Position numbers and translations under genes: made by a program. DNA of 61,015 bases, filler included, from Hausera hauseri (Eukaryota): NCBI GenBank assembly GCA_046269625.1. It is 10 parts of 10 records of this genome, joined end to end, with 100 filler letters (N's around TTAATTAATTAA, not from the genome) between each part and the next. Parts side by side here need not be neighbours in the genome. Positions count along the whole stretch, not along the records: positions 40,953 to 46,360 come from JBJURY010260954.1; 9 more parts are not named here. The stretch is one strand, 5' to 3'. This document shows, piece by piece, positions 3-46,889 of this stretch (position 1 is the first letter of the stretch; each line of letters begins with the position of its first letter). Under the pieces are notes generated by a model. The model did not search any database. It was not told the DNA's origin and worked only from the letters and a program-made list of their open reading frames with translations.

Positions 3-764
3 GGATGTAGAAGTGAAAACTACAATCCTATAATGATAACAGAAATACATCCAGAGGCAAGAGCACAGGCAACAGTGGAGAATATCCTAAGGGAACTAGA
101 ACCACGCGGAGTAGAAGAAATCTCTACGGGTGATACGCAAGATGTCACAGTTCAAACGGAAGCCAAGAAAAGAGGTAGGCCGAAAGGGACGAAAGTAAGT
201 GACATTCATAACAGAAAAGATAGAAACGAAGAAATAGTAAGACGATTATTATTATCAGGAACAAATGGCACTCTCGAATCAGTAGATATAGACCCACTAC
301 TAAGAACGTTATTGGCTAAGCTGCATACGTCATTTGCTTCATTTGACATGCAGGCAATAATCCCAGACGAACTGTTCACAACGATACGTAATAATATGTT
401 ACGAATAAGTAGGCAATTCTATGAAAACTTCGAGGAAGAACGGATAAATGAAACGCATGAACTGGATATTTTAGAAAAAATGTTTGCAACTGGAATTACG
501 CGCGAGAAAGCTCGAACGGTGATATCATATCTTCTATATAAAATAATAGTAATTAATCACCAAACTCAAAATCGAGAAGAAATTGAGCTGAATATAAGGA
601 CAGCCGTAAAGATTTTGAAAGATACGTTAGGCTATTGGGCTCAATGTAGAGGTGGATGGTTGACTAGCCTGATGACCAATATAATAAGGTCAGGGGAACA
701 AGGAAGAGTAACAGATACGCCAACTGCGACACAACCCAACATCTCTAGATCAAGCACAACAGGT
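3..764 (+). pseudogene. Polyprotein region upstream of the glycoprotein; helical, with AT-hook-like KKRGRPKG
   Basis: Frame is open from nt 3. Colinear with contig-7 ORF 43306-44397: EARAQATVENIL/KARTEQCVGQIM, KKRGRPKG/RPVGRPKK, LLYKIIVIN/LLYLAIKIN. Confidence 0.7.
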
Positions 765-2656
765 ATGTCAATGATGGAGATTATTCAAATCCTCCTAATA
801 ACGTCATTATTAATGCCAAAAGCTGTAGGTAGAGTAGCTTATGACTGCTCTAAACCTAGTGAAGGTCAAAAGTACTCTCTAGTGGATTTGGAGAAATGCC
901 CAGCTGACCCAGAACAGTTAACGACGACAAGTGGTCTGATATACTGGGTATATCAAGAATCCGAATTTATAAAAGGGAAAGTCAGGGAATGTTATGTAAA
1001 AAGATCATTTTTCCTGTTTAATTGTGCCTATTATTCTGGAAATTCCGCCATAACCGAGCCTACGACACCTCTCGAACCAATTATTATATCGGGAGCAGAA
1101 TGTCAAGATGTTTTTAAGATTGGTATCATAACTATACAAAACGCGCATATACCAGCAGTTCGAAATCGACTAAGTATACCAAAATATTTAAGGCAGGAAG
1201 AATAGATAAAACAATGGAAGGCACTTGCAAAGGAGTGGATTACGACGTGGGAGGTACTATTGCGCCTAGAACGGAAACCATAGAAGATTATCAGATCCAG
1301 TTAAAAGAATATGAAGTATTATTCGACTCACAGGCAAAATTGATGACGACTATAAGTGAGTGCGAGTATGATAACGACGAATGTGATACTGGGAAATCGA
1401 AAATGACATTGGAAACCACTGCAAGTAAATGCCAGTTGACGCTATTAAAGAAAGGAAAGTTTAACAAGACGGTAGGAAAAACGGCGGAAAAAGAAACAGC
1501 GACATATAAAGAAGAAACAAAGGAAGTGAAGATGACGGAAGTGGCTACAATCGTATATTCGAAAAATCCGGAAGACATGATGCGATTTAAAATCACGGGA
1601 GTAGCAACTAAGTGTAGTGAAAAGATATCAAAAACTAACTACAAGGGTATCTTAGCAAGAAAAGAAATACCCGGTGCGAAAACCAAAATAGAAAAGAAAG
1701 ACATAAAGTTGACGCAATATTTCGATAATAAGATTGACTTTCTAATCAATTACGTAAGGAAAGAAATTAGAGGTTTATATAGAGAAATAATAATGAATGA
1801 ATGTAAGCTGAATTAGGAAATAATGCGCAATAAAATGGCATTGGTAATAACGAATCTGGACATGGTAGAGCCCGTAATGCCCTTCGGCGACGGAATCATT
1901 GGTAGAGTGATTGGCGAGGTACTGATAACAATAGAATTCAAGAAGGTAAAAGTATCAATCAGACCAACAGAAGAAAACACAATGGAATTACCTGTGGTTT
2001 ACCATACAGAACCGAGATATGTGATGCCAGTAACCAGAATATTATTAGATATTATTGTGAAGCCTACTCCACTATACAATTGCACCTTCATTATGCCGCC
2101 AATGTTTAAGATCGACAACGATAAATGGATTAGAACGCCTAAAAGAGAAGCAGTGCCCAAACCGAAGACGTTAAGTTTGATTAATCTGCAAAAAAATCAA
2201 AAATTCAAACCGCTAACGGGAATATCTCAGGGAGGAATTTACACACAATAAAATCTAGAGGATTATCGACGAATGTTGTTGTTTCCCCCACAAAGACAAA
2301 GAGTGATAACAGAACTGACTAGGAGAGTAATGTGGGATGGCGAAGGATCACCGCAATGGGAAAACCTTATGGGTAAGGACTATCTAAAGAGGGTAACAAG
2401 AAACGTTATGGAAACGATGTGGGGAAAGTACTTATATTTTGGCCAAGCAGCTTCCGGTTTTCTAGCTATATGTTTTATTATTAGCGCCATACGGACAGTA
2501 TTTACGGAACTAGGTAAAGCCTGTGGAATACATGCAGCAGTAGGATGCTCATGAAAAATTTTAATAGCGGTAATACCAGCAGTAGCAAGTTGTTTCTTAG
2601 CAAACCATGATGCACGATGGAAGAGGAAGATACTACAAAGGAAAGACATAAAATAA
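765..2656 (+). pseudogene. Chuvirus-like (class III fusion) glycoprotein: internal signal peptide, ectodomain, TM
   Basis: Signal IIQILLITSLLMPKAVG|RVAYDC, then chuvirus-G-type motifs YDC..YSLVDLEKC, AGRID..GTCKG, YFDNKIDF..LYREII..EC, GEVL, ELPVVY, PPMFKI..W, GGIY, FP, WGKYLYFGQAASGFLAICFII. One frameshift at ~1160-1190; stops at 1814, 2249, 2552. Confidence 0.85.
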
Positions 2657-2896
2657 TCCCTGTATAGTATACATGATGATAATGATGCCGAATATAGTCA
2701 AATGAAGACAAAGAAACGAGTAGCTAGAATCAAACAATTAGTGCTAAAGACACGGGAGCCGAAGTATATACTAAAGTTAATAACTGACCTACCCCGTCTA
2801 GATCCTGTGGATGAATATCATAGACAGTTGTATAATGAACAACCGTTAATAAATCCTTCACCTCCCCGATACGTAGTATATACAGGACTATAGCCT

Positions 2897-3475
2897 ATGC
2901 GTCAAGTGCAACAGATAAAACAGAGTTTTGATGAAAATTTGACTCCCTATGAACACAAACCTAAGTACACTGTTGACGATAAAAATGAAAGACAACCATC
3001 TATAAGACCAGAAATAAAAATAGAGGTGAACGGATATCCAATGACGGCTTTACTAGACACAGGATCTACAACAACGATAATGGGAAGGAGCCAATTGCCA
3101 AAGGAATTAAAAAGAAAGTTACGAAGACCAACTACTACATTAATAAACGTAGGAGCATTCGGTACAGAAGAGGAAATCAAGATGGTCTTAGATGCCAAAA
3201 TTAAGATCGGTGAACAAATGTTGAAACATACTATAAGGATAGCAGATAATTTGACTAACGAGATTTTAATTGGGTGCGATATATTAAATCAACTGGATAA
3301 CGATTACATAGATATGAGAACGTGTCAAATTAAGCCGTTCGATGAAGATCGTAACGAGGGAATGGTTTCTATAACAAGAGACATTACGATTCCACCGCGA
3401 TCCGAGGTAGTGGTACATGAAAAAATAGAAAGTCGTGTTGTACCAGAGATTATATATTTTGAACCGTCCCCATAG
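2897..3475 (+). pseudogene. Retropepsin (aspartic protease) plus Gypsy PR-RT linker
   Basis: ALLDTGS (Asp codon 3056-3058), ILIGCDIL, IPPRSE linker. Confidence 0.92.
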
Positions 3476-3679
3476 GTTATTAAGAAATATAAATTTTTAA
3501 TCGCCCCTCACGTAGATAAAGTAAGAGATGGAAGAGTCCACTTACGAATTTGTAACACAACAAACAAAGAAAAACGATTACGGAAGTGTACCAGACTGGG
3601 AAAAATAACGATTACTGAAGAAATAATAAAAGAAGAAATCTGCCAAATAATATCAGATATATATAAAATAGAAAAGATA

Positions 3680-5183
3680 ATGACAGATAAACTGAAAAGG
3701 AAACCAGAGGAAGACAAAAGAAGAAATAAAACCACGAACATCGATTGGAACGAGAGATTACAAAAATGCGAAATTCTAAGTAATGAAGAGAAGGAGATAT
3801 TAATCGAATTATTGGAAAAGAATAATAGTCGATTTGCACAAACTGACTATGATCTAGGCACGATGAAGGTAATACAGCATGCCATTAAGTTGAAGGACGG
3901 CCAAGACAAGCCAATTAAGAAAAGACCGTATCGATTAGCATACGATAAAAAACAGGAAACACGTAAGATAATAAAAGAAATGAGAGAAAACGAGATAATC
4001 CGACTAAGCTGTTCCCCATGGACGGCGCTTGTGGTAATGGTCAAAAAGAAAGATGGAACTATTAGATTTTGCATAGACTATAGAGCCTTAAACAAAATAA
4101 CAGAGACTGATACATATCCCTTACCAAGAATTGACGCGATACAAGATAAACTACACGGATCGACCATATTCACAACTATCAATATACAAAAGGGTTATTG
4201 GCAAGTGGAGGTGAAAGAAGAAGATAAAGTAAAAACGGCTTTCTCAATTGGAGAAGGGCTATGGGATTTTAATAGGATGCCATTTGGATTAAAGAATGGA
4301 CCACCAACGTTTCAGAGAGGAACAGAACTTCTATTATTAGATGCTCCACATGCCATGGTATATATAGATGACGTAATAATAGCATCACCAAATTTTCAAC
4401 ATCTAAAGGATCTACAGGATCTTTTTGATAGATGCGAAATAATGGGTTTAAAGATAAATCCCAAGAAATGTTCATATGCACAAGCAGAGGTAGATTGCCT
4501 CAGACATAGTGTATAGACATGGTGTAAAACCTCAGGACAAGCTTTTAGGAAAAATAAGAAATTTTCCTAAGCCAGGTACAGTTAGAGAATTACGTCAATT
4601 TCTAGGTTTAACAAACTATTACCGAAGATTCATAAAGGATTTTAGCAACATTGCAAAACCGCTGTATGAATTATTACGTGAAGATCTAGATAAAGTTATA
4701 TGGTCGAACGAATGTCAAAAAGCTTTTGAATATTTAAAAGATAGACTATTAACGGCTCTCATATTAATCTATCCAGACATGACTAAACAATTTATTTTGG
4801 CAACAGACGCAAGTGATTATGGAGTAGGAGCAGTACTATCCCAGAAGGGCGAAGATGGAAAGGAACACCCTGTAGCTTATGCGTCATGAAAACTTAATAA
4901 GCATCAGAAGAAATATGCTGTAATAAAAAAGTTATTAGCAGTAATATTTGCCTTGGAAGTGTTTTCACCCTGTATTAGTGAAAATAAACCGATCTTAATT
5001 TATACGAATCATAGACCGCTCCAATGGCTAAAGCAGCATGAGAATCCAAATTGCAGACTACTACGATGGGCTCTAAAGTTACAACCGTACACATTGAATT
5101 TCCAGTATAAACCTGGATCGCGAAATGCCAACGCCGACTACTTATCGAAAATACCCGATAAATCAGAAACAAAAAGGCAGTAG
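3680..5183 (+). pseudogene. Reverse transcriptase and RNase H (frameshifted)
   Basis: RPYR, SPW, RFCIDYRALN, YPLPRID, RMPFGLKNGP, YIDD (4361-4372), RQFLGLTNYYRRFI, TDASDYGVGAVLSQ, KPGSRNANADYLS. Confidence 0.95.
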
Positions 5184-5200
5184 TCGCAGCTGTATGGAGT

Positions 5201-6296
5201 ATGGATGGATCAGTCGAGAAAATTAAGGCAAATCAAAATGAAGATGTAGAAATAAGGGCCATTAGAAAATACATAAAAGACAAAACCATATTAGTTGACA
5301 TAGAGTTAACCCGTCATCTGGCTCGATTTAGTGAAGCTTACGAGGAAAAAGAAGGATTTCTATATTTTATTAGCCAAAACGGACCTGCATTAGTAATTCC
5401 TAGAAAAAATAGAGCAGTTTTACTGACTCAGTATCACGATGGATTACTTGGTGGACACCAATCGGCCAATAAGACACTAAACAAACTAAAACGGAAATAC
5501 TTTTGGCTAACGATAATGAAAGACGTACAGGAATGGTGCGAGAGCTGCAACCTGTATGGTACCCGGAAAAACACGGGATCAAAATTCAAAGAGCCACTAA
5601 AGGTATGGGACAACCCTCCAGCGCCATTCGAGTTTACCGCAATGGATATAACGGGGCCATTACCGTTGACACGAAATGGAAACAAATATATTTTAGTCTT
5701 CATCGACTATTTCACTAGATGGGCTCTTGCTCTGCCAATGCCTGATATGAAGGCAGACACAATTGCTGAGAGATTTGTGGAAAATATAGTATTTAATTAC
5801 GGAGCCCCAAGGATCCTCTTGACTGATCAAGCTGCAAATTTAACTGGAACTGTAATGCAGTCCATATACGACATCCTGAAGATATTAAAATTACGATCCA
5901 CGCCGGGACATCCGGAGAATAATGGAATGGTTGAGATATATTGGAGATTTAAAAGGAAAATTAAAAACGGTGGTAAATACTAGGCAAGACGATTGGGACG
6001 AATATATCAATACGTGTTTTCGTAAATCGGACATCTGTTCATGAAGCTACTAAGGAGACACCGTTCTACTTAATGTATTTCCTGGATGCAAGATTACCGA
6101 TTGATCTAGATTTTAATGTAAAACCAATTTCCCATTTAATAGAAATAGAAGATTATAAGCAGTTGATGCAGGAACGTCTAAGTTAGATAGGCCCTATAAA
6201 GGACCGTATGAAGTAGAAAAAGTAGGTCTACCGAATATTTGCTTAAAAAAGAATAAAACCTTTGTAAAGGTCCACGTTAATAGATGTAAGCCCGCT
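5201..6296 (+). pseudogene. Integrase (degenerate HHCC, DDE core, GPY/F tail)
   Basis: HDGLLGGH..CESC, MDITGPLP, IDYFTRW, LTDQA, HPENNGMVE; YKGPYEV..VHVNRCKP at ~6190-6295. Confidence 0.92.
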
Positions 6297-10868: not shown

Positions 10869-10985
10869 GATTACAATATATGTTTATTTCTTGAATTGTT
10901 CTAGTAAAGGGTATTTCATGATTATTAGAGGAAAGGATAATTGATTAAAATAATAATTCAATAAATTAAATAGCAATAGTTTTAG

Positions 10986-11854: not shown

Positions 11855-11915
11855 AAACAATTTATTAATAAAATTAATTGTGATAAATCGTTTTATTCCC
11901 TTTTATTATTTTAAG

Positions 11916-12199: not shown

Positions 12200-12261
12200 A
12201 TAGAATTTGTTTAAAGTTTTGACTTTTAGAAATATAATGTATTGTAGATGAGATACAGAAA

Positions 12262-12659: not shown

Positions 12660-12759
12660 NNNNNNNNNNNNNNNNNNNNNNNNNNNNNNNNNNNNNNNNN
12701 NNNTTAATTAATTAANNNNNNNNNNNNNNNNNNNNNNNNNNNNNNNNNNNNNNNNNNNN
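12660..12759. other. Artificial contig spacer (also 17172-17271, 23662-23761, 29541-29640, 36272-36371, 40853-40952, 46361-46460, 51288-51387, 56756-56855)
   Basis: Identical 100-nt N-run with central TTAATTAATTAA (stops in all six frames). Confidence 0.99.
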
Positions 12760-15700: not shown

Positions 15701-16775
15701 CACGTTTCGTTTGCTCCAACGTCATGTAGTTTGGCCATCAATGCGCACAGATATACAGGGTTGGGTTAAGGAATGCGTCGCCTGTCAAAAATACAAAGTC
15801 AATAAACATCTTAAACCGTCGCTTTACTATTTCCCATGTACATCACGTTTTCATGCCGTTCATATTGATCTCGTTGGACCCTTACCTTCTGATAACGGTA
15901 TCAACATATTCTCACTATGATGGATCTTGCTTCTCGCTGGCCTGAAGCCGTTCCTCTCCGTTCAACAAACACTGATTCAGTCGCAGATGCCTTTATTAAA
16001 ACCTGGATCAGTCGTTTTGGATCCCCACGGCACATCATAACGGACCAAGGTCCGCAGTTCGAATCGGAACTCTTTAAATCGCTTGTTAAACGATTGAGAA
16101 TATCACATTTCCATACAACGCCGTACCATCCACAATCAAATGGCCTTTTTGAAAGGATCCATCGAACAATAAAAATTTCTTTAAAAATCTTGGCAGACAA
16201 TCATTGAAATTGGACGTCCATCCTACAGCTACCATCTTACGCCAAGACAAACCCTACAACGTCCACATTTCGAATCTTAAGCCCGCTTTCTTTGTTGACG
16301 ACAATCCGGATGCCTATTCTACTTCCAACCCTAACTCAACCCTAACTCCTTCCATTCCTTCCTCAAGCTTTCTCCACGACTTCGCTCCGTTGCAGCAACC
16401 ACTTTCCTCTCACACTAAATTATCCTCATCTTTCGCACCACTTACTGTATCTACATCGCTTATTCCATTTTTTCGCCTCTCTTGCTTGATTTATTCTCTT
16501 CACCATCTTCAACGTCTTCATCACAAGCAACACAGCACATTAAATAAGAAACCTTACAAAACGACTACCACAAAATATCGTTCAACAGCCAAGCACAAAT
16601 CAATCAAATAAGACATGCAGAGTGACATTTAGTACCTATAGTAGGGAAAAATCCGTAGACGGAATACAACGTCTCATACACACCAAAATCCAATAGGCAG
16701 TAAACATTTTTCTTTTGCGTTTTGAGTCTTTCTGTTTTGTTTTACAATTTCTTTTCTGCCACGGGGGGAGGGGTT
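12760..16775 (+). mobile_element. Decayed Ty3/Gypsy element, CsRn1-like (gag with CHCC knuckle, PR, RT, RH, IN, PPT)
   Basis: ICFYHYKF..AEKC..C; FLIDSGA-type protease site at ~13600; GSDFL; RPCGDY, MPFGLRKAAQTFQR, YIDN; TDHKPL; HIDLVGPLP, TDQGPQFES, YHPQSNGLFER; G-rich PPT at 16763-16772. Confidence 0.9.
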
Positions 16776-17271
16776 ATGCAGTGCCACGGTCTAGGATATG
16801 ACCCTCCATTTTTGGCAATCGGGTCACCTTTCCATGCAGCTAGGCCGGCACGGTTTTAGTCCTGCCTTTTTTCCTTTTGGCCTGTGTTTGTTTGGCAGCT
16901 GAACAGTCCCTATCGGTGTCAAATAAAATTAATATTCTTATTTGGTTGTTTAACAGGCTACCAATTTTTCTATCTTTTAATTTTGACCGTTTGTTTGATA
17001 ATCGTCGTTAAAAAGCCTGGATTGAAGTTGGAAATAATGAATGACAATATAAGCCCAACTAAAGCATGTCCAGCACATAAAAATACCCACTGAATTCATC
17101 GGTTTTGCATAGTCCTACAAAAAAACAACATATGAAAGCTAACTTAAGTTCCGTAAAATTTCTGGATTTCTNNNNNNNNNNNNNNNNNNNNNNNNNNNNN
17201 NNNNNNNNNNNNNNNTTAATTAATTAANNNNNNNNNNNNNNNNNNNNNNNNNNNNNNNNNNNNNNNNNNNN

Positions 17272-17670
17272 TGAGTTGTGAATGGCATGAGTTGTGAATG
17301 GCATGAGTTGTGAATGGCATGAGTTGTGAATGGCATGAGTTGTGAATGACATGAGTTGTGAATGGCATGAGTTTTGAATGTCATGAGTTGTGAATGGCAT
17401 GAGTTGTGAATGGCATGAGTTGTAAATGGCATGAGTTTTGAATAGCATGAGTTGTGAATGGCATGAGTTGTAAATGGCATGAGTTGTAAATGGCATGAGT
17501 TGTGAATGTAATGAGTTGTGAATGGCATGAGTTGTGAATGGCATGAGTTGTGAATGGCGTGAATTGTGGTATAACACAAGTTGTTATTTAGCACGAGTTC
17601 TGATTTGGCATGAGTTGTGATTTAGTACGAGTTGTGAATGACACGAGATATGATTTCCACGAGTTGCGAG
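17272..17670. repeat. 16-bp minisatellite (GAGTTGTGAATGGCAT)n, decaying rightward
   Basis: About 18 near-identical copies followed by degenerate ones. It produces spurious repetitive ORFs. Confidence 0.95.
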
Positions 17671-18899
17671 GTCTCCCTTTGGAAAATTTGCAATATAATT
17701 AGTTTAAATATTCACAGATTCATCTGAGGATGGCTATGATAGCCAAAACATGTCGTGGGAAAAATAAGTCTAATCCGGCCACAAAAAGCAAGATCTGCTT
17801 TCACTGGAATAATATAGTTGTAAGTTGGTAACACTTTGAACCCAATATTCTCAACGAATCGCTTATCCAACAAGCATTTGTCATGTAAAAATAGCATATA
17901 AATCTGAATTTGTTAAAAATAAAAACCAAAGTCTAAAAACAATTAGCACAATCGAATTCACCTTTTCCTTCAGAAAAACGTGAAAAGACAGTACTGTAAG
18001 GAACTGGAAATAAAATGGCATATCATCGGAATGTGTCTGAATTGAATTGGAAAAGTAAATAATTTAGGCACACACAGACAAATCAAATGTACTCTGGTCG
18101 ACATTAAATGGTTAAATATTGTCCAAAAATTTTCACTGAAATTCGTTTTGGATATTGGAACACCAGAAATTTGGATGCGTTCTCGTACTTCTTTTAAATG
18201 GGGTGATCTATATTTGAGAACAAACGAAAAATGAAAAGAAAATTAAAATTTGTAAATTTCACGAAAGTCACAAACAGAATAAAATATAAAAGAGACATTC
18301 ATACACAAAGACATTCGTTGATCTCGACTGGTCACACAAGTATTAGATAGAAACACTTTCGAAAAAAGGTTACATTAATAACCAATGATCAAATGTTAGT
18401 AGGAGGAAAATACCTGTTCTCCTCCACCCGGTGGGGCGGGGTAATCGATAAGTCGATATTGCACATGTGCCAATCCACAGTACATCCGGTGCACTATCTA
18501 TCGGTAAATGTGCATGGTAACGGCGCCTTCAGGCACCGTTGTTATGGCACTTTTGCACTTTGCACATATTGATCGCTGCACAGTACAATATTGATGGAAT
18601 CTATCGGAATAAAGTGCTAGATGATAGTGCACGTCAGTGCACATCGATTATTGCACAGTGTACCGATAGTATACATGTGCAAATGGGTGAAAACCAATAA
18701 TATTGGTTTTGCGATAATTCCAATATTGATGATTAGCATATGGCACCGGGTCAGTTCGAATGAAAAAACGGTGCTTTATACAAGTGTGCAATCAGAATTC
18801 AAATCGATCGAATGGTTTTTGAATATCAATTCGAAAATTTTGTGGCGAGAACCGGTTTAGCTTTTTTGCGCCCTAAGGAAACAAAATTCGATAATACAT

Positions 18900-23761: not shown

Positions 23762-25059
23762 TAGTCACCAAGGTACTTACCTTCTGCCATGCTTCACCCC
23801 TGTTTTGCCATCCGGGCATAAGTAAAACTACGGATATAATTAGGTCACAGTTCTGGTGGGGTTCCTTAGCTAAGGACGTTAGAGAATTCGTTGGGTCATG
23901 TATCCAATGCTCCCAGGCCAAACCCTCTCGGCGTCCTCCAGCGGGTCTCCTAAGGCCACTACTGATTCCTTCACGACCATGGTCTCACATCTCTATGGAC
24001 TTTGTTACTGGCCTACCACTGTCTGGGGGTAAGACTACCATTTTGACTGTTGTTGACAGATTCTCCAAGATGGTTCATCTGGTTGCACTGGAGAAGTTAC
24101 CCTCGGCTAAGGAACTGAGTGACATTATGATAAAGGAGGTCTTTAGACTCCATGGCCTTCCTAAGAACATCGTGTCCGACCGTGGTCCTCAGTTCATTTC
24201 CAAGTTTTGGTCGGAGTTTTGCACCACTCTCAATATTGAACTAAGTCTCTCTTCAGGTTTTCACCCCCAGACCGATGGCCAATCAGAACGAGCCAACCAA
24301 GAACTGGAGACCCGCCTGCGTATACTCTGCGGCAATGATGCAACCAAGTGGGCCAAGAATCTTCCCATTGTTGAACATGCGATGAACTCACTTCCTTCCA
24401 GCGCCACAGGTCTGTCCCCTTTTTATGTGCTATATGGTTTCCAACCACCAATCTTTGCCACCCAGGAACGAGCAGCCATGGTTCCATCGGCCTATCAGGC
24501 AGCCCAAAGATGCCAAAGGATCTGGAGAAGAGCCAGGCAACAACTATTAAGGTCCTCCGCAGTTTACACACGATCCTCCAACCGTCACAGAATTCCAGCG
24601 CCACATTATCAAGAAGGACAGAGAGTTTGGCTGTCAACCAAGGACCTACCCCTTCGTGTAGACTGCAGGAAACTGGCTCCCCGATTCATCGGTCCCTTCC
24701 CTATTTCCAAGGTGGTAAACCCAGTAGCTGTCAAGTTAAAACTCCCCAGTTGCATGAGAATCCACCCTACGTTTCATGTGTCCCGAGTCAAACCGGTCCA
24801 GTTTTCTCGATTCTTGCCCGCCTCCAGGCCCCCTCCACCCGCCCGACTCATCGATGGCGGCCCTGCTTTCACTGTTCGCCGCCTGATACGTTCTCGACGC
24901 TGGGGCAGAGGCACCCAGTACCTCGTCGACTGGGAGGGATATGGTCCTGAGGAAAGGTCATGGGTGCCAGCCCGGCACATCCTCGACAAGACCCTTATCA
25001 GTGATTTCCATCGCGACCATCCTAATCAGCCGGGTGGTCCGTCAAGAGCCGGACCGTAA
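23762..25059 (+). CDS. Chromovirus (sushi-like) integrase plus chromodomain, intact frame
   Basis: [57 protein letters not shown]; GC content is higher than in the other contigs. Confidence 0.95.
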
Positions 25060-29640: not shown

Positions 29641-31390
29641 GAACAAAAAGCTTTCGACGAGATGAAGAAAATATTAAGATACCCAGACTTTAACTTGCCC
29701 TTCATAATCAAGACGGACACCAGTAAAGAAGGTATTGGATATGAATTAGCACAGAAAAGAGAAGATGAAGAATTAGAGCACCCGATTGCTTATGGAGGAC
29801 GTTCCTTAAAAGAGGCCGAGAAAACCTATTCTGTTACTGAATTAGAAACTCTAGCTGTAAAAGAAGCACTTCAACACTTCATCGTTTATGTGTACGGGCA
29901 AAAGATTATAATTGTCACTAATCACAAAGCTGTTACGACCTTAAAGGGACGAGCAAATAATCCGACATGCAGACTTAACAGATGGACAGAAGAAATCTCC
30001 AGATATAATATTGAATTCCAGTATAAACCAGGGAATAAACAAGTAGACGCTGACGCATTATGAAGATTAAAGATCAAAACCAGTACAATTGCTGTAATGA
30101 AGAAAAGCAAACTCGAAGAGATAATAGATCCTCAACGCGCCTTGACAATGGATAAAGCAATTAAAATTTTGACAGAACAGAGAAGGGATAAAGTCATCCA
30201 ACAGATTATGGAATTTGTTAAAAAGGAAGTCATACCGAAGGGACGACAGTTACAGAAACATTTACACAAACACGGACATAAATATTGCGTCTTAAACGAC
30301 AAGAGCAACGAAGATATTTTATATTACTAGCGAAAAGGAAGAAAACTGATAGCTATTGCCAAAGATTTACGAACCGAAGTGTTAATGTCAGAGCACGACT
30401 TGTACTTAGCCGAACACATGTATTGGAAGAAGACATTAGAAAGGATAATGAATAAATACTTTTGGCCTAGTATCTATATTGATGTGAAGAATTGGGTGAA
30501 TGCTTGTGAAGTATGTGCGACTAAGCAGAAGAAGACGAAAAATTACATGGCCAAATTAAGACCAATTTATGTACCCGACAGGCCCATGCAAACCATGTCG
30601 ATGATATCGTAAGACCTCTTCCTACAACTCACAAGAGCAATAAGTATATTTTGACGTGTATTGACCGATTAACTCATTTTGTTGAGTTAATAGCATTAAT
30701 CGATGAAAAGGCCAAAACCTTAGCAGAAGCCGTAGTAAGAAAAATTATTTGCCGATACGGCCCCCCCAGACCAGATACTCAAGGATCGAGGAAGAAATTT
30801 TACAAGTGAATTATTCAAGAAAATCACTAAAATATTTTAAATCGAACGATTAGCGACTACTGGAATGGTGGAACGAATGAACGCAACTGTTATACGTATA
30901 TTATCGACAGTAGTAGCAAAAGACCGTAAAGATTGGGACGAATTTTTGGAAGGGATTCAGTTTGCTATTAATACCACACCATATCCAGCAACAGGATTCA
31001 CTCCATTTTTCATGATGTATGGACGCGCAGCTGTGTTGCCCACGGACTTAGAAATGACGCCATACACAATCAATCCCAAAGATTTAGAACAAAATTTCGC
31101 AGAAGTATTACAAACGCGATTGCAAAAGTGTTGGGAAATAGCCAAAAAATTATCCCAAGAATGTCAGGAGCAGTTTAAAAAGCAATATGATAAGAAGCCA
31201 AAACCGCATTATATAGAACAAGGAAATTGGGTTTATGTACATTACCAGGTAGCCAAGAAAGGCACCTTATTAAAATTAACTCGCACAGGCAGAGGACCGT
31301 ACGAATTACCAAGGTTACGCCAACCATAGTATTTATTAACAAAAATGGAAAGGAAGAAATCGAATCAGTACAGAGTTGTTAAGACAGAAA
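29641..31390 (+). pseudogene. RNase H and integrase
   Basis: KTDTSKEGIG, ELETLAV, TNHKA, KPGNKQVDADAL; H..AEH..CEVC; GMVERMN; TGFTPFFMMYGR; RGPY. Confidence 0.92.
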
Positions 31391-31449
31391 TACGGCCAAA
31401 TAAAAATTATAATCTACGTCAGCGTGAGATAAAAACTTCTTCAATAATT

Positions 31450-32712
31450 GCTAGACCGATATTATACGTTCAAATAGTTTTAGCATTATCGTTAATTGCT
31501 TTATATATTCCGAAAGCTAACTCCGAGCTGTCCAAAGAAGACGCAGGAAAACAAAAAGATACACAAAGTTTAAAATCAATGAGGGCCTACGGTGCATATT
31601 GGGAAAATCCGTGCGTTTGGTTTAAGGCAGATGACCCTGTTAAAAGCCGTGTAAAATTCCAAGTATTATTCATAGACCTAGGCAATGCTGCCCTAAGGTC
31701 GTGCAATTTTCCATATTGAGCAAAAAGGAAGTGTTGTATGTTAAATTTTGATTGAACATATACATACAAACTGCAAATGACCTACTATAATATACGTGGT
31801 ATTCAAGTTCATATACTTATGGAGCTCAATATAATCACGCCGAAACAGAATGAAACAAGTCAGGCTAAAACAGAGGAAATAATTCGAAGTACCGATCCGA
31901 ATATACAAATATTGGACAAGAACATTAACGGAATCTTCATAAATAAGGAAAAACAATGCATTCAAATAGATGCTCGTACAGGAGTAACTCTTAACCAGGA
32001 AATTAGTATTGTTTTCGAAGCAGTAAACGGAAAAACCCCGAGAATAAATTACTGTTCTATTCATGCCGGTGTACAACGCCCATGTTGTAGGTTACCAGTG
32101 AACCAAGAGTTGAAATTAAAATTCGACTTATGTGAAGTAAGGCCAAATAAAACAAACAAACATTTTCGGACTTACTATCCAAAGAATAGGATATGGAAGG
32201 TTCCGGTAAAAACAAACACTAAAATGCCGACTACTCGAGTTAGTGTCATTACCAGACCCGCTACGTCGGGCAATGAGCCTAAAAGAGAATTAGGAGGTAT
32301 ATCTGTGAAATATTCGGCGCAACAATCTAAGATTGTGTTCTTTGTGGAGGAAAAACAACATTACGACATACATATAAGTTGTCGAACAACCTATAATAAT
32401 CAAATTGTAACATTACTTAAAAACACTTATCAGACCGAATGTAGTTTGCTAAAACCGCAATCTGATTACATAGTACAAATATTTGCAGAAAATAAACAAA
32501 ACCAAACAATTACATTGCGTACCTTAGACGAAATTCCCGCAGAACCGCATATGTATGAAAATATAGATGATGAAATCACAACTCCAGTCACAACACAAAC
32601 ACCAATAGGATTAGCTACACTGCCGATCGTATTTATCTCTGCACTGTCAACGTTTTTTTCTTATTATATTAATTGCGATTTCTCGATTAGTTACCAAAAA
32701 CTGTTATTCTAA
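31450..32712 (+). pseudogene. Type I membrane protein with signal peptide, Cys repeats, fibronectin type III-like domain and TM
   Basis: ILYVQIVLALSLIALYIPKANS signal; LKPQSDYIVQIFAEN (FN3 L-x-P-x2-Y-x-V-x3-A-x-N motif, ~32440-32495); Thr-rich stalk; IGLATLPIVFISALSTFFSYYI TM. Confidence 0.7.
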
Positions 32713-32884
32713 GCGCCATAAAAATTCAGAACGGGAATTAAGGGAATTGGAAAACCCTGTAGATCCGTATGATAAAATAACCTGACAATTACAGATCAGG
32801 TTATTTTGTCATTAAACAAAGGAATGGTTTTGGTTTAAAACCATCCTTTGTTTTAAGATTAACCTTTATATTCTCATTTTCAGA

Positions 32885-33964
32885 TTGGTAAGTAGTCAGA
32901 ACCAGATGAACCCGAACCGACTTAGAATCGACACCGAGGAAACTACGAGTCGACTTAGTATCCACAAATTCTTGCAGCGATATGTGACCGTACGGATTCC
33001 GAATTCAAAGGCCATCTATCGGCAAATCAATACAGAATTGCAAGGAAAGAACTACGTTCAATGCGGGAAAGTTGGTGAGATACCAAACGGTCTGAAAGGA
33101 ACGACCGAGGAAGCCATAGCTATATATTTATATGCCGGGAGAGAGAATAAGGACGCCAGAGCATATCCTTTGCAACGGATCACCCAGTACCAGACAAACA
33201 AGGAACAGAAGATATATGTATATTTGGCCGACGGAGAAATCTATTATCGGCTGAAAGACCAAAAATGGGACTCTTTCCAAGGAAGGCAAAGCCGGTTTAG
33301 CATGTTTGAATTTGACACTAGAAATTTCCATAACTACAATCTGGAATTTCGTGTAGCCGCCTTACCTGTGAAAATGATGGTTGAAATAACTGAAGAGGAG
33401 ACAATATCCATCTCATTACCGCCCTTAGAGTTTAGGCAAAGGCCTACCTAAGACGAACAAGACACACATCTACATTCGTTCAGATTGGTAACCAATGGCA
33501 GGAGTATCAGGATTGCCGCAATAAACTATGGAGAAGGAGAAGAAGGAAATTATATCCCGATCGAAATATCCATCCGAGAAGAAAACGGGGCCAAAGTTTA
33601 TTCGAAAATCATTAACCCGAAAAGGAAAGTACTAGAAACTTATGCAGAAGTTACCGGGATTAAAAGAAAACAATTAAATCATGGAAAGGATTCTAAGATA
33701 GTGCAACAGGAAATAGCACAGTGCCTCTACGGATACGTTTTAGTGGGGTATCAAATAGAGAGGATGATAAAAAAATTAGCCATACCGGTAACACACATAG
33801 CCGGAGTGAGAGAGATAAAAACCCACCCGACTGTTACGAGACAAATGGAGATCAAGGTCAAAGAGAAGAACTTATCTACCACCAACCATGGAGAGCCGAT
33901 TCAAGCTTATGGTAGAAGCCATGGCTTGAGGAAATATAAAAATAAGCAGATTGTTGACCGGTAA
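32885..33964 (+). pseudogene. Accessory ORF with REX4/ISG20-like DEDDh exonuclease fold, catalytic acids lost
   Basis: Acceptor ttctcattttcAG at 32882-32883; one in-frame TAA at 33449. ISI.EENG.KVY..IINP...V......VTGI....L..G.....VQQEI...L.GYVLVG matches the REX4 pattern; AAINYG replaces A-x-DCE. Confidence 0.6.
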
Positions 33965-34182
33965 TCAAAGATCCCAATATCTAAGGGACATAAATGCTGG
34001 ATTAAACTGGAAACACGAATGGATTCCCAGTAACTCGGACAGAAACTTCGGAGTTTTCCCAAGCTGGAAGGAATCAGTACACGATACAGAAGCGCTACCG
34101 TCCTTACTCACAACCAAGAAGCGTCGAGACAACACCGAAGTGGAATTACTAAATAACTATACAAGGATTAAAAACGGAGAAA

Positions 34183-34521
34183 ATGGAAGATAAAGTACGT
34201 ACAGATGGAAAACGCAGTACAAGTTATGGCGCCACGGCAGATAATAATCTATTTAAGATACCTGAAGTTCCTCGGAAATGCATAGAAGAAAAACATAGAA
34301 TTTCAGAAATCGAAACAGGAAAAACAACGAAAAGGAAAACCGCCTTTTTCGATTACTTATTCAAGAAGAAAAGTAAAGAAGGAGAAAAAGGACTGAAAGA
34401 AGAACCCAGACAAGACAGAAAAGATTCAAAATCAAAACAACCAGCAGAAGAACCCTCAAAACCAGACATGCAGTCCCGAATTGAGAAGTCCACGAGAAAC
34501 CCAAGCAAACAGAAAGAATAA
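34183..34521 (+). CDS. Lys/Glu-rich ORF, possibly frameshifted tail of the preceding ORF
   Basis: Low-complexity and basic; AATAAA overlaps the stop. Confidence 0.35.
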   Translation: MEDKVRTDGKRSTSYGATADNNLFKIPEVPRKCIEEKHRISEIETGKTTKRKTAFFDYLFKKKSKEGEKGLKEEPRQDRKDSKSKQPAEEPSKPDMQSRIEKSTRNPSKQKE

Positions 34522-35008
34522 ATAACAGAAATAAACGTCCTACGGTAGAAGACATCCACGGAATATGTTCACTACACCACTACGGCAGATTATCCCAGGA
34601 TGCTAATAGCCACAGAATATTATAGCAAACAAAAAATTACGGAGGCAATATTTTTTGTAAAATTAATGCCTGCCAGACAAGTTTTTTGAGAACACGTATG
34701 TCTGGGAAAATCCTAAGATCGGAAAATACGTTGCTCCGATATTTCAGTCCAGACGAAAAGGTAAAATCTTAGTCCCTGTAGATAAGTCAATAAAACTGTT
34801 ATTAAAGAAGCAATATCAAAAATACCGATCGACTGATAAAGTTCCCGATTAAGATCGAGACACTATCAGCGATAGGACTCTAATACCTGTGGGATGCGAT
34901 CCCAAAAAGAGTTCCATAAATCCGAAATAAAAGAGAACCTCTGCTTATTTATACCAAGACGAAGACGGGTTGGTAATAGAACCCATAGAAATTATGCTAA
35001 GAGTTGAC

Positions 35009-35416
35009 ATGGACGACGAAAATTGGGAGAAAGAGGAAAATCAATGCCCAGTATGCGAGGCAAATTTGAAATAAGGGTACGTAGTGTTAAATAACCTCGA
35101 CTGCCGGCACAAATATTGCAGGGATTGCTTAGAGAAATGGACATTAGATAATGGGAAGACAATATGTCGTGTGTGCAGAGCGGAGGTTGCCGACTTAAAA
35201 TATTACCCAAACAGTAGCTACACTAGTATAGTTAGAATAAAGCCCTACCACAATTATGAACTCGAAACAAATCCCAGAGAAGATCAACCAAGTACCAGCT
35301 CTGGACCCAGTCTAAGGAGACCTATGGAATTGTTACGATGGCCTCGTTCTCACGGCTTCTCTCCTGACGCAATGGGCACATCCGAGGATGCCGTTCAGGG
35401 AGAAGAAATGTTGTAA
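35009..35416 (+). pseudogene. RING finger protein overlapping PPT and LTR start
   Basis: MDDENW..QCPVC (stop at 35072) ..CRHKYCRDC.EKW..CRVCR in one frame. Confidence 0.8.
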
Positions 35417-36096
35417 ATGGAGACAATACCGAACGCCATAACAACGAATATAAATAACATTGAATGTAAATATGTAATATAAATATTTAATCAACATTTC
35501 AGTTTATGATTTATGTTACTGGATGAAATTGTAACAAGACAAGAATGTAGTTATTGAATTATTAATCGACAAAACTAAAATTGAATAAGAAGTATCATAT
35601 AAAAAATTGAATAAAAACAATTGTAAATGATTAATTGATGAAATCCAACACTATATAAAGAAGAAATGTAAAAGAAAATCAGAACGTGTGAGCTGCGAAA
35701 TTTGGATTGAACTTGGAGAAACAATTGATCAAGACTTGATTACTGACTATCATCGTACCGTTGAGTTAGTGATTCTATAGATTGTATTCGTGTATCAGAA
35801 ATTAAAGTATTCGTTAAAGTTCGTTTTATTTTAAAATAATCTATAATTTGCATCGCCCCTTAAGGGTGATTAGACCATATTAAGGCAAAATTGAAACGTA
35901 AATTGTATAGATAAGAGAGACATTCTTAACTATCGGCACAAGACCGCATGCATCACCGGCATAGTAATTTTAAAATTGTTAAGGTACAGTCTGTCTACTC
36001 GATTACGGTAGATTGAACTGCATAAGATTCCGAAATTTCAAGTGAAACTATTGTTATATAGCGGGCGTTGAATAAGGGCCACCGCAATATATAACA
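35409..36096 (+). repeat. LTR of copy B
   Basis: PPT agggagaagaaa directly before TGTTGTA; ends TATAACA; TATATAAA at ~35652; PBS follows. Confidence 0.7.
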
Positions 36097-36098
36097 TT

Positions 36099-36115
36099 TG
36101 GCGACCCTAGCAGGA
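36099..36115 (+). promoter_or_regulatory. Primer-binding site (probably tRNA-Arg)
   Basis: TGGCGACCCTAGCAGGA begins 2 nt after ..AACA; its complement TCCTGCTAGGGTCGCCA resembles a tRNA-Arg acceptor end. Confidence 0.7.
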
Positions 36116-36371
36116 CAGCCTGTACCTCGCTAGGCTTACTATTGAGAGTTAATGAAAGACACACCTGCCAACAGCGCCACTATATCAAATAAATCGTTAT
36201 AGTTAAAATCAAAAATTAAATTTGGTATATAAGAATATTTACGGGGATAAGTAACGCAAAACTTTAATCGANNNNNNNNNNNNNNNNNNNNNNNNNNNNN
36301 NNNNNNNNNNNNNNNTTAATTAATTAANNNNNNNNNNNNNNNNNNNNNNNNNNNNNNNNNNNNNNNNNNNN

Positions 36372-40852: not shown

Positions 40853-41410
40853 NNNNNNNNNNNNNNNNNNNNNNNNNNNNNNNNNNNNNNNNNNNNTTAA
40901 TTAATTAANNNNNNNNNNNNNNNNNNNNNNNNNNNNNNNNNNNNNNNNNNNNGATTGTTAGTATATGGTTCCATATTCCGGAAAGTTTTTAACCTTAGAT
41001 TTTCCCGGACAAGTGATTTAGTCTCCATATTTCGCGGTTCTCTCGGGAAATACAATATTCTGGGGTCATCCATGGGCAGTCGATAACACATTTTCTATGG
41101 GACTCCATAGCGTTTCGTTTCCTCATAGGGATCGTCTAAACTAATCGTCCTTTTATAGATTTCTGTCTGATAGAAGCTCATTTATTGTTTGTCACATTTT
41201 TCATAGACGAGAGCAGTAGGGGGTAGCATAGGCAATGGTGTTTAATGACAGAATACGCCTTATATCTGTCTATTCTTGCAAGTACTTCTCCTCCCTTAGG
41301 CTCGACATCATCTGAGTTATTTCCTCGTGTATCAGATTTTGTAATCTTCCGCTTGTATAAAAACATAGGTCTTCCTTTCCTTTTAAGATTGTGGTAACCG
41401 ACGTGGCGTT

Positions 41411-43270
41411 CTACGTCTGACTTCCATCTATTCTCTTCATATGTTTCAAGAACTTTCCAAAAGGCATTATAATTGCAGTTAGTATTTTACATGAAAATCC
41501 GGTCAACGTAAATATTTCATATCCATTTATTATTGCTTGGATGACGGCCTTAATCATTTTTATTAGGAAATATATCGCTAGAAATCCGGAAGCCGCTTGT
41601 CCGAAACTTAAAAATCTTCCCCAAATTTCATCGAGTATTTCCGTGGTTACTCGTTGGTAATGGTGTACTGCGAGCAAGGATTCCCGTTTAGCTTGATAGC
41701 GGGTGTCGTCCATTACGAAAGCCATGGCTCGATATAATTCATGAATCCGCTGTGGCAGAAAATCGCGAAATTGCCTGAAGGCTTCAATTTCTTTAGGCCT
41801 ATATATGCACTTTGACGAGATATCTTGAAACTTATCGTCGGTATTTCCTTTTGCGAGATTTGTTCCTGTTAATTTATTTAGAACGGTAGTAATGCCTCCA
41901 TTTGGTAAACTAACCCAATCCGTTTCACTCCGCCTAAACATGGGTTCTCCTAAGCTTGCTTTACAATCTTTAAGGATTGTCGGTTCAGTTGCATTACCTA
42001 ATAATACTCTAATGAGCGGCGTAGCTAATCTTGTAGTATTCTGGTAAATAACAGGAAGTTTCTGTATACAACGTTTTTCTTCAACGTTGATTGGTACATC
42101 TCGTTTCTCACATTTGTAAGTCAATAGGACTTTACCGGTAACTCTACCGAAAATTCCTTCTCTCATAGGAATTATTGGGGATGCCAACTCAGGATTAGCG
42201 TAAATAAGCGACAGTTTTGTTCTCATAATTTCCATACCCAATTTACAATCATTCGTTATCATTTTATGATATAATTCGGTTATTCCAACTTGTCCTTTGT
42301 AAGAGAAATAATTGTCTCGGTTTTTCAGGTAGTCCTCAATCCGAATATCATGCGTTTCTAGCTTGTAAGTCTTCTCATTTATTTCTGTTTCTGCGACGAA
42401 GAACGCTTCATAGTTGGTAGTGAACATCACTACTTCACAACAAGAAATTATTTCTTTTTTAATAAATTTTAGCCCATGCTGATCAGAGATTAATATAGTA
42501 GGCGTAGGATGTTCTGATACGTCTGCGCGTGTCCCTGAATTGGTATCAGATTTATCCACATATCGCTTTCCGGTGGTTTCACTAAATTTTAATTCTTTAA
42601 TCTTGATGAAATTACAGCTTCTTCCAGAGGGAGGTTCCAATATTATAACAGAACTTCTAAAAGCACAGGTTCCGTCTTGCAAGTGACATTTCTAATTTTT
42701 AGTTTATAACTTGGTGAGACTATGGAACATTACTTTCTGTGATCGCATCTCTGATTCTTAAAAATCCACGACTACCACATTTGCTTGTAATTCTTTTTCG
42801 ATGTCATATTCTGCTCCGTAACAATGTCCATTGTGCATATCTAACCTTCCGGCCACTACCTTGTACGCCCTAATTATCTTTCCTGGTTGCATTTCTAATT
42901 CCAGGAAATCCCATTGTACTCTTCCGGTTTCCTTAGCTTGTTTGCAATGCTGACATTCTAAGTTCATAGGAATTAGCGCAGTTGTCGGTTTAATTATTGA
43001 TGAATGCCCGTGTACTGATCCACAGTGGAAAATACTGCGAGATCGTCTCAACATACATTCCATTTTATCTAACGATATCAGCTCTTGTTGTTGGAACAGG
43101 AAATAATTTTTTTCTTTTGTTTTTATCTTGTGCGGTCTAGCATCTTCGCACACCTTCAGATCCAATAGGGAGTATCTCTGTCCCAATTTAAACTTATCTC
43201 AGTCGTAGACGGTAACTGCACTTATATGTTTTATTAACATCATCAAGGTGAATAGGCTGATTAACCAATT
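41411..43270 (-). pseudogene. Chuvirus-like glycoprotein, second divergent copy
   Basis: Signal WLISLFTLMMLIKHISA|VTVYD*, YSLLDLKVC, FHCGSVHGHSS, AGRLD.NGHCYG, LYHKMITNDC, LPVIY, WGRFLSFGQAASGFLAIYFLI. Confidence 0.85.
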
Positions 43271-43983
43271 TGATTCATTTTTCCGATAGCCAACATCCGT
43301 CGTTGTCAAATTACGCAACATATCATCACGTTTATTACTGGTCCGCCTGTCTTTTCTTTGTCATATAGCCTTGACCAATTTACTTCGCATGGCAATCTTC
43401 TTGCCGTTTTTCGTGCTAAACTTATAGATCTATTGACTTCATTCTCTCGATTAGGGTTTATTTTGATAGCTAAGTAGAGCAACATTTTTCTCAATTCCTC
43501 ATTGGTGTTTTCTACCATTATCTTTTCAATTACCAATTCATCGGTTAAGTTACTTTTTGACAGTTTAAAACATGAACTCCTCATCGTTTTAGCTGCTTCG
43601 AAAATTATCCTTTCTTTATCATCTAATACATCACCCCGAAGGCTCGAATAATTTACAATTCGTATTAAATTCTTCATTAACTCACTTAATTCCTCATTGT
43701 TTGTACTGAGAGTCGGAATTGACATCTGTCTCAGTTCTCTAATCATTTTTCCATTATAGTCAACTTTTTCTCGTGTCTTTTTAGGCCTACCGACTGGACG
43801 TTTTAGTCTCGGCCCTTTTGTTGTTATTTTGCTCAGTGGTACTAGGTTTATATCGTATTGTTCCTTGTCTTCATCCGTTTGTAAATACTTGAAATACATT
43901 GCAGTGTCTCGAACTCCCATAATCTGTCCTACACATTGTTCTGTCCTGGCCTTACACATGGCTTTTTCCTTTGTCTGCTCGTT

Positions 43984-44205
43984 AACTATCGTTGCTACTA
44001 TCCGATTTATTTCGACAGTGATAATCCCGATATCTATTAGTTGTTCTGGGTCGTCGAGTATTCGACCTCTAAAGTAAAATCTGTAAATTAGCTTATTTGT
44101 TCCGCCATTGCTTAATAACCACTCTCTTACATCATTTACATAGGAATATGTAGTTAACTCACATTCTTTTTCGTCCATCCATTCGGAAAATACCATTACT
44201 TTTAT
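43984..44205 (-). other. Ubiquitin-like domain within the polyprotein (ORF 43306-44397)
   Basis: Gapless manual alignment to ubiquitin residues 1-61 with identities at V5, E16, V26, G35, R42, F45, G47, L50, D52, L56, D58, I61. Confidence 0.65.
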
Positions 44206-44397
44206 CGCTACCTCTGGTTTAACCCTTAAGAATTTAGCGTATTTCTTAATCAATAGTTTTGGGACCGTGCTATAAATCGTATTCTCACTGGATAATTTAG
44301 TTAATGTTGGAATACGTTGTCTTAACATACTTTCAGTAATGTTTACGTTAAGTAATTCGATTAACTCTTTTTCAGCTAGCTGCGAATCCAGAAGCAT

Positions 44398-46253
44398 CTC
44401 CGCATTGAATGTCCTGTTCTGCAGACATGTTTCTATCTCATTTAGTTATACTAGAGTCACGAGTTTTTCGGCAAGTATTGCGTAGAAGTATGCATCCCAT
44501 TCGGGTTCGTTTTCGGCGTCTGGAAGTCCATAGTCTACCAAGGCTGTATTCGTTTGTTTCACGTTTTCCCTCATTTCTTTTAGTCTCGGTTGTATTTCCG
44601 TCATCTATGTAGTTCGAAACCCTACACCGTTTCCAGAGGCACATTAAATCATTTTCAGTAATTCGCCGAATTCGTTAGACTCGAAGAGTCCTTTTTGGTG
44701 CTAATCTGTTAATTCAATAATTACATCTTTTTGCCATCTTTGTACGAATTCTCGTTTATTTTTAATGTCTGATTCGAAAAACGCATATTTGTTTCGGTAA
44801 ATTTCGAATTCTTTTGCCAGTTTATCTAGCCTCGTCGCATCACTAGTTCGGACCATTCCGACAACTGATTGGCGATTATTGGCTTTGCCATTATAGCCTT
44901 ATCTAACATCTTATATGCATCTTTTAACTCATCATCCGGCCCTCTTAGGAAATTCATAATCCGACCGACATAACTAAACTCGTCCTTATATTCGTCCAAT
45001 TCTACGATACAAGCCTTTATTACGTATTGAGTCTCCTCATGATTTGGAGCCATGATTCGATTTCTCATGCTGTAAATCTGTGCTCGTTTTTCATTTTCTA
45101 TCTTGATTCGATTTTCTAGGTTTGTATACTGTTTGGGTATCGCAAATGCGATTTTTATCTTCTGCATCAAGGGAGGAATATCTACTGGGTCTATACCCAA
45201 TATTCCCAAATCAATATTGCTTCGGTTGCTAACTGGTTTCTCTCTAAGTCGATTAATCATTGCGCAACGAATCTCATCCATTATAAGTTTTAAATTACGG
45301 GTTACTCTCTTCAGCTTCAGGTTGGCTTCTAGGGTGGACAAAAGCGTTTGAGCTTTAGTGACTTTTACACCGACATTCTCCTCGTTTTTACTCCAAATTT
45401 CCGAAAATTCAACTTTACTTTTACTCAGTGATTCTAATTCATGCTTCCATTTTAACAATGTTTCAGGTGATACTTCTTCCGGTTGTCCTAAGTCGATTGC
45501 TTAAGCAAGTTTTCCTTTACTACATAATTTCAAACTTTTGTATAGTCTCTCAACATACTGTTGTTCTTTTTCGGATATGTCCACTTGCTCGCTAATCTGC
45601 TTAAGCCTTTCTAAATTTCGTTGTAGTATTTCTGGATCGTGACATCAAACTCTTATTTTCTTTAACTCATCGGCGTTTTTCCATGAACTTCGGACTTTCG
45701 ACTTTTTTGGATCAAAATCGCCAATGTTCACCGTTTTTTCCTCACTAGTGGGAAGTGGGCAAATCTGGTTAATTTCATTAATTGACTCTGTAGATTCTTT
45801 TACCTCGATAGGCGTCAATGGACCGATTTCCAGTGTATTTAAACTATATTCTACGTCGCTTTCCATAACAATGTTCGTATTTTCCGTTTCTTCTATTTTC
45901 TCTCTAGTTACTGGTGAGAGTGAACGACTTCTACGTTTCGTTTTTAACCAAGGGCTACGGCCTCTATTTTTCGTAATTTTAAGTAATAATGGTTCTATAA
46001 ATTTTTTTTCTGCTGCTTCGTCATCCGTAGACTTATCTACCTTTTCAACTGTAAACTCAAGCTCTGCATCTAAGTCGACTTCTGTTGATGTGCTTGGTTT
46101 ATCAGATGGTTTATTGCTTGTCGGAACACTCTTTTTCCGTGTCATATCAATTCGCTTGGGTGCTATCGCATGTTCGCACTCGGTTTCTGGTTCTGCTAAA
46201 CCATGATACACTTCTGGTAGTCTTAGCTTATCTCTATATTCTTTTTCGGCCAT
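44398..46253 (-). pseudogene. Unassigned N-terminal polyprotein region (disordered then helical; candidate Gag replacement)
   Basis: ORFs 45645-46253 and 44826-45458 share a frame; charged, helical composition; no CCHC. Confidence 0.55.
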
Positions 46254-46889
46254 CAGAACTTGTGTATTGGTAGTTTCAGGCTAAACATGTAGAAATTTTC
46301 AAAAGTTTTTTATATTAATAATAATACCTGTGTCTCCACGAACTCCATATTTTGCTAGATNNNNNNNNNNNNNNNNNNNNNNNNNNNNNNNNNNNNNNNN
46401 NNNNTTAATTAATTAANNNNNNNNNNNNNNNNNNNNNNNNNNNNNNNNNNNNNNNNNNNNGATGAAGAAGAACCTGGAAAAAAAAACGCAGCTAAATTAT
46501 TCTAAGCAATTCTCTTGAGTAGTTTCATGTGTAACGTTCAACTCCTCTTTTTATGTGTTATAATAAATTATGAATGGCGACGATATAAATGGAAAAAAAT
46601 CGAATTCGTTTACATGTATAGAAAATAATTTTTCTTTTATTTACTATATATTAAGGTGTTTCAGAAATATGAAAATTTTTGATTTTGAAAAACTTCAAAG
46701 CTTTTCAGATGAAACTTTTTATGCACGAAACAGGTACAAAAAACGTTGTTCTGTACAGTTACAAAAAGTTTATAATTTTTATGTATTCAAAATACCTCTG
46801 TCCCATTACAGCGTGATGCACATAAAACAATAGCTAAACGGTAACATTTATTTGAAATATAAGTGGCTAACAGCTTATATCAATTTAAT

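Follow-up and report, generated by a model that had tools for sequence, protein, structure and literature searches.

A decayed chuvirus-type glycoprotein locus of Hausera hauseri as a probable remnant of a Burro-like Ty3/Gypsy family

Does a second, strongly diverged glycoprotein gene in the Hausera hauseri assembly (GenBank GCA_046269625.1) belong to a retroelement family in which the envelope precedes the polymerase, or does it have another origin? The analysed window comprises 61,015 nucleotides and consists of ten contigs with spacers; the locus in question occupies contig 7 (positions 40953-46360, record JBJURY010260954.1) and is read on the minus strand, and the element with which it is compared, copy A, is contig 1. 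We consider it quite probable that a Burro-like Gag-insert-glycoprotein (G)-Pol Ty3/Gypsy family has left a decayed copy in contig 7. The contig is likely the middle part of an element with a single polyprotein comprising Gag, a long insert, G, and then protease (PR), reverse transcriptase (RT), RNase H (RH) and integrase (IN). We favor this reading because of the family to which its G belongs, the layout of two relatives (P0123 and P0124), the RT clade that they share with copy A and the multi-copy coverage of the contig; the region ahead of G also links contig 7 to copy A and to the insert of P0124.

The coding capacity of contig 7 is distributed over three consecutive minus-strand frames (46280-44829, 44898-43309 and 43360-41414), holding 2 stops in 484 codons, 4 in 530 and 4 in 649, respectively. 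Total damage amounts to ten stops and two frameshifts, which flank the middle frame, one toward the 5' stretch and the other toward the G frame. The features are as follows:

44829..46253, minus strand: 5' coding stretch, acidic and Lys/Ser-rich, then a likely coiled-coil; ATG at 46253
43309..44898, minus strand: pre-G frame, 530 codons with 4 stops
43921..44220, minus strand: weak candidate ubiquitin/SUMO-like domain (PF13881, E 0.038, below cut-off)
43369..43800, minus strand: GRPK basic motif and helical domain, possibly Bcl-2-like, homologous to the copy A pre-G domain
43208..43264, minus strand: internal signal-peptide-like hydrophobic stretch (Kyte-Doolittle 1.86), aligning with the copy A stretch
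41414..43207, minus strand: chuvirus-type (Monjiviricetes) glycoprotein G in one frame (PF24664, E 8.1e-13 and 1.6e-41)
40953..41413, minus strand: degenerate post-G region, with no significant linker match and no protease up to the contig end

The PF24664 profile and hydropathy identify a chuvirus/gB-type envelope protein with a signal peptide and a transmembrane (TM) segment, the latter near 41584-41528, followed by a second hydrophobic stretch near 41515-41460. The 5' stretch has no Gag or CCHC motif and no family match, and the GRPK motif is presumably AT-hook-like. No internal repeat was found in contig 7, itself a fragment, and YIDD occurs in it once, in an unrelated frame.

Copy A offers the more complete counterpart, with its C-terminal G, linker and PR sharing one frame:

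252..686, plus strand: candidate Bcl-2-like domain with BH1- and BH2-like motifs (PF00452, E 0.013, below cut-off)
759..2620, plus strand: signal peptide, G and TM segment (PF24664 in four pieces)
2894..5980, plus strand: PR, RT, RNase H and integrase in Ty3/Gypsy order (profile matches and motifs)

Alignment of the two G regions revealed clear homology. The signal-peptide-like stretch and N-terminal G are identical at 37 of 112 positions (copy A 789-1122 versus 43261-42925; score 154, with a maximum of 50 over 2000 shuffles), and the middle to tail of G at 142 of 458 (copy A 1193-2573 versus 42853-41470; score 551, shuffle maximum 82). The parts follow the same order and are 31-33% identical overall, and the second hydrophobic stretch (to 41468) belongs to the G tail, where similarity to copy A stops (control p = 0.005). 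The colinearity of signal peptide and whole G claimed in the original prediction is thereby borne out, as is the extensive divergence of the proteins, the two contigs having no nucleotide match at E <= 1e-5. Third codon positions of the G genes are only 33-35% identical, the proportion of synonymous differences (pS) reaches 0.76-0.84 and nonsynonymous divergence (dN) 0.65-0.86; synonymous sites are saturated, and a numeric dN/dS (nonsynonymous to synonymous) ratio is hence undefined. Saturated pS with dN of this size suggests that contig 7 and copy A separated long ago under purifying selection and that decay came later; judged by this divergence, they are old, separate lineages. A recent, fast-diverging duplicate of copy A would explain the shared assembly and the identical order of parts, but the missing nucleotide match and the saturated synonymous sites leave it almost no probability, and the G of copy A resembles that of P0124 (34%) no less than that of contig 7 (31%).

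Relatives with intact polyproteins were recovered through the RT of copy A. Word-based searches with the contig 7 G covered 3,324 and 3,474 candidates without recovering a relative, and G-alignment scans of viral and metagenome contigs confirmed 0 of 98 and 0 of 145 pattern matches. The search with the copy A RT listed 120 proteins, from which we examined the best full-length hits (51-56%) and the members of their clusters. Two of these are intact in a single frame. P0124 (3,735 amino acids) starts with a Gag-like N-terminus bearing a CCHC motif (298), followed by an insert, G (to 1912), PR (2163), RT (2474), RH (2695) and IN (2930), while P0123 (2,226 amino acids) has the order G (3-641), PR (736), RT (1052), RH, IN. 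Both carry the same G family in frame, ahead of the protease. The contig 7 G matches those of P0124 and P0123 at 27-28% identity (E 2e-77 and 8e-61, respectively), and in pairwise comparison the G pieces of all four (copy A, contig 7, P0123, P0124) are roughly equidistant, at 29-34%.

Of 124 retrieved proteins, the 66 with alignments of 200 residues or longer at 46% or higher went into an RT tree of 68 rows, together with the RTs of copy A and contig 2. With midpoint rooting, one branch at 100/98 unites copy A, P0123/P0042, P0124/P0015 and five further ENA proteins. Since G precedes PR in copy A and in both sub-branches, this layout is most simply ancestral. The G-bearing label does not fall on one side of a single RT branch (3 changes), owing to five G-less records in the clade; three of these begin at or after the protease region, and in P0019 and P0022 the 290-340 residues preceding the protease gave no G match. 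The envelope-first layout may therefore not be universal within the clade. Residues 1-290 of P0019 form a signal-plus-TM protein, distinct from G, directly ahead of the protease, and tandem aspartic-protease motifs occur within single polyproteins, at ~2020 and 2178 in P0124 and at ~170 and 352 in P0022.

Contig 7 has no pol and cannot by itself show the envelope-first layout, which rests on copy A, P0123 and P0124. As a family trait, the layout proposed in the original prediction is supported by these three, not by contig 7. The accompanying claim of an old, diversified lineage instead of a one-off insertion fits the saturated pS, the multi-copy state of contig 7 and the intact relatives with a fused G. 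The overall conclusion was probably right, though its basis is copy A and the intact relatives, not the contig 7 linker.

Ahead of G, copy A and contig 7 are identical at 37 of 129 positions (score 61, p = 0.004; copy A 174-612 versus 43791-43395), a similarity that appears weak but real over these 129 aligned codons. The copy A contig begins ~255 codons before its signal peptide, which leaves ~800 contig 7 codons upstream of 43800 nearly without counterpart; the predicted pre-G colinearity is accordingly seen over ~130 codons and not over the rest. Further upstream, contig 7 44403-43921 resembles P0124 761-921 by shuffling (p = 0.001), but whole-protein BLASTP gives E 0.044.

Two kinds of domain are suggested for this insert. 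A three-sequence profile of the ubiquitin-like region returned five PDB matches, all of the ubiquitin family (E 0.086-1), and the SUMO-like Pfam match of contig 7 is sub-threshold; a single-sequence search with the contig 7 region gave no PDB match. The pre-G domain of copy A matches BOK at E 0.04 with BH1- and BH2-like motifs in register, and resembles P0124 1075-1210 (p = 0.001). A profile of the pre-G domain retrieved mostly Bcl-xL chains, yet at E 0.32 or worse and ranked under two unrelated matches. AlphaFold models were poor (predicted local distance difference test scores of 42.6 and 53.8); with them, Foldseek found nothing at E <= 0.001 and Bcl-2-family chains only at E 1.4-1.9, and the best VIA-align match was a generic helical bundle (Z 8.6), with Bcl-2 in 0 of 50 rows. 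Searches with the contig 7 pre-G open reading frame (ORF) gave no phmmer match among 1.84 billion representatives and no usable match in the ESM Atlas. On these profile and motif similarities, the ubiquitin-like and Bcl-2-like labels are likely.

The upstream homology also bears on another idea, in which a free chuvirus-like RNA virus left a piece of itself in the genome and this endogenised piece, lacking any retroelement body of its own, was afterwards amplified into a repeat. The family PF24664 comprises viral glycoproteins, and Jingchuvirales glycoproteins are described as adjoining long terminal repeat (LTR) fragments, such insertions being common (PMC10084718). Unlike an endogenous viral element of that kind, contig 7 has an upstream flank homologous to a retroelement insert, with matches in copy A and between Gag and G in P0124, and none of its eight scanned ORFs matches a nucleoprotein or polymerase (L) family. 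Moreover, its G is as near to retroelement-fused G proteins as these are to one another, in a comparison among copy A, contig 7, P0123 and P0124. We regard a purely viral origin as very improbable.

The contig 7 family is multi-copy with many variants, and G is an integral part of it. From a single run that holds 31% of the sampled words, and is possibly the source sample or a relative, 12,666 variant contigs placed at 85% cover 30 of 30 bins of contig 7, G included; this figure counts variant contigs, not copies, intact or otherwise. By identity, 658 variants fall at 99% or above, 2,040 at 95-99%, 5,447 at 90-95% and 4,521 below 90%, and transitions account for 607 of the 796 variable positions. 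Summed depth over the bins ranges from 476 to 17,964, compared to 5-12 for the longest listed pieces. No RNA dataset was among the listed holders of sampled contig 7 words.

Beyond G, the picture changes. Significant similarity of the post-TM linker, on which the original prediction had staked itself in advance, was not obtained: a frameshift-tolerant test of contig 7 versus copy A gave p = 0.24, and p = 0.21 and 0.79 versus P0123 and P0124. The best of three single frames reached p = 0.037 and the best of nine frame pairs p = 0.026, but we reject linker homology with copy A, as alignment stops with the G tail, at 41468. Linkers fail to match among pol-bearing elements too (P0042/copy A p = 0.088; P0124/copy A p = 0.27). 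From the TM motif FGQAASG, contig 7 continues for 217 codons up to its end; the distance from this motif to the first protease motif is 204 codons in copy A, 191 in P0042 and 182 in P0124, although linker length varies, the second protease of P0124 lying 338 codons away. An exact 24-base search of metagenome contigs for the downstream end of contig 7 gave 0 matches. Candidate late-domain-like motifs lie between G and the protease in copy A and the relatives: PPRY in copy A (2861-2872, plus strand) and P0124, and PSAP, PPAY and YPRL in the P0042 linker. They would fit budding dependent on the endosomal sorting complex required for transport (ESCRT). The three frames of contig 7 contain no PTAP/PSAP or PPxY.

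Several observations weigh against a Gag-insert-G-Pol origin of contig 7. It ends before any PR, as had been noted originally, with no protease motif in any of six frames (best profile E 4.3), yet exceeds the first-protease distance of the three relatives by 13-35 codons; nor does it contain an RT or other pol remnant (best E 1.5), a Gag or CCHC motif, or a match to the Gag of P0124. Depth is lowest in the two end bins (476 and 528, with the interior at 902-17,964), and just 13 of the 12,666 records extend over the contig ends. Every ubiquitin-like and Bcl-2 match is below curated cut-offs, and the contig 7 helical domain has neither a Bcl-2 match of its own nor a direct match to P0124 1001-1270 (p = 0.66), being connected through copy A only. 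In the RT tree, copy A is a long branch (0.86), and 5 of the 10 rows of its clade lack G in the protein on record.

Some of these points would suit a non-autonomous derivative that kept the insert and G, lost pol and was copied in trans by relatives: no protease within 217 codons of the TM motif, no linker homology, and minimal depth at both ends with few records extending over them. Against this, linkers mismatch among pol-bearing elements as well and vary in length, up to the 338 codons of P0124, and depth in the end bin is still ~50-fold that of the longest listed pieces, even though edge effects and the 85% threshold lower such bins. Such a derivative is, in our judgment, unlikely.

An envelope between gag and pol is already in print (PMC6431247, PMC13524379). 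The giant planarian Gypsy element Burro/GYPSM1 is described as carrying env in frame between gag and pol within one polyprotein, in an internal region of up to 25 kb, with the order Ubi2/SUMO-like, BCL2, env, PR and with RING and BIR motifs too; its env matches arthropod and fish mononegavirus glycoproteins (PMC6431247, Arkhipova and Yushenova 2019). Measured by this published description, the weak ubiquitin-like (contig 7) and then Bcl-2-like (copy A) signals before G follow the same order, and P0124 has env in frame between Gag and PR; contig 7 itself is broken and lacks both ends. Unlike in Burro, no MATH, ankyrin or BIR was seen in the contig 7 insert.

GAG-ENV-POL Ty3/gypsy errantiviruses with an HSV/gB-type, Chuviridae-related env are reported from Nematoda, Bryozoa and Platyhelminthes, with nine flatworm rows, six of them Schmidtea (PMC13524379, Chary and Hayashi, eLife 2026). 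The main text of that paper mentions neither Burro nor Bcl nor polyprotein; it cites Sacco et al. 2022 for non-canonical nematode endogenous retroviruses in which the ENV/POL order flipped after capture of an RNA-virus glycoprotein. Likened by description, our family shares the Chuviridae-type G and multi-copy state and would share the Ty3/Gypsy affiliation and env ahead of pol, whereas those elements are intact with three ORFs and contig 7 is a broken fragment with neither gag nor pol; that collection may include closer relatives. The layout being known, the gain here is modest: a further, deeply diverged and apparently high-copy family. Anakin (Dezordi et al. 2020) is reportedly a mosquito BEL/Pao element with a Chuviridae glycoprotein. 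It would have the same glycoprotein family in an LTR element, but in BEL/Pao, while the copy A RT falls among Ty3/Gypsy relatives.

If the Burro-like reading of contig 7 is right, the hydrophobic stretch before G could act as an internal signal through which G enters the lumen of the endoplasmic reticulum (ER). Signal peptidase would cut G free from the cytosolic Gag-insert portion, and the TM segment of G would stop transfer and return PR-Pol to the cytosol, where the protease would then free the enzymes. This topology would require an amphipathic or re-entrant second hydrophobic stretch. The insert would likely provide ubiquitin-like and Bcl-2-like domains that dampen cell death during particle production. 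The contig 7 copy is dead, with Gag expected beyond 46360 and PR beyond 40953.

A wider proposal is tentative, and we rather doubt it: that a single ancient cassette, made up of ubiquitin-like domain, Bcl-2-like domain, internal signal and G, sits between Gag and protease both in Burro and in a broader Gypsy clade (copy A, contig 7, P0124), which also has a second membrane protein after the integrase. After cleavage, the remaining signal would hold the Bcl-2-like domain in the ER as a tail anchor; the result would be an enveloped retroelement equipped with its own cell-death block, and at least two anciently split families would coexist in one host genome. Should both the cassette and the membrane protein after the integrase prove general in the clade, the architecture of Burro would be older and wider than the planarian description suggests, and intact relatives such as P0124 would offer a way to study the routing of Gag, envelope and Pol through one membrane-spanning polyprotein.

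After the integrase, a signal-peptide-like stretch with an extracellular-looking domain, several with a TM segment, occurs in copy A (6159-7118, plus strand) and contig 5 (31330-32709, plus strand). The same arrangement is found at the C-termini of P0123, P0124 and P0019, with an Ig_3 match in P0123 (E 9e-5). These tails, which do not match one another beyond the end of the integrase, are possibly a second surface protein of the clade. Contig 5 (29641-36271) encodes an RNase H-integrase 31-33% identical to those of P0123 and P0124, then membrane-protein ORFs and a RING at 35075, and may correspond to the 3' half of a contig 7-like family. Its ORF at 33452-33961, with no Pfam match, resembles a DEDDh exonuclease by eye. 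Downstream of the copy A integrase (10545-12657, plus strand) lie three RING-finger ORFs and one BIR domain, motifs of the kind that Burro carries; they may lie outside the element.

Other contigs carry different elements. In contig 3 (20784-23510), pieces of a DNA polymerase B of the protein-primed type (PF03175, E 5e-5) lie close to a RING, and contig 6 (36534-36884) has a fragment of a piggyBac-like transposase (PF13843). Contig 4 encodes an unbroken Gypsy integrase with a chromodomain (23764-25056), which by eye resembles fish elements, and has 42% GC versus 34-39% for most others; more than one animal may have contributed DNA to the assembly.

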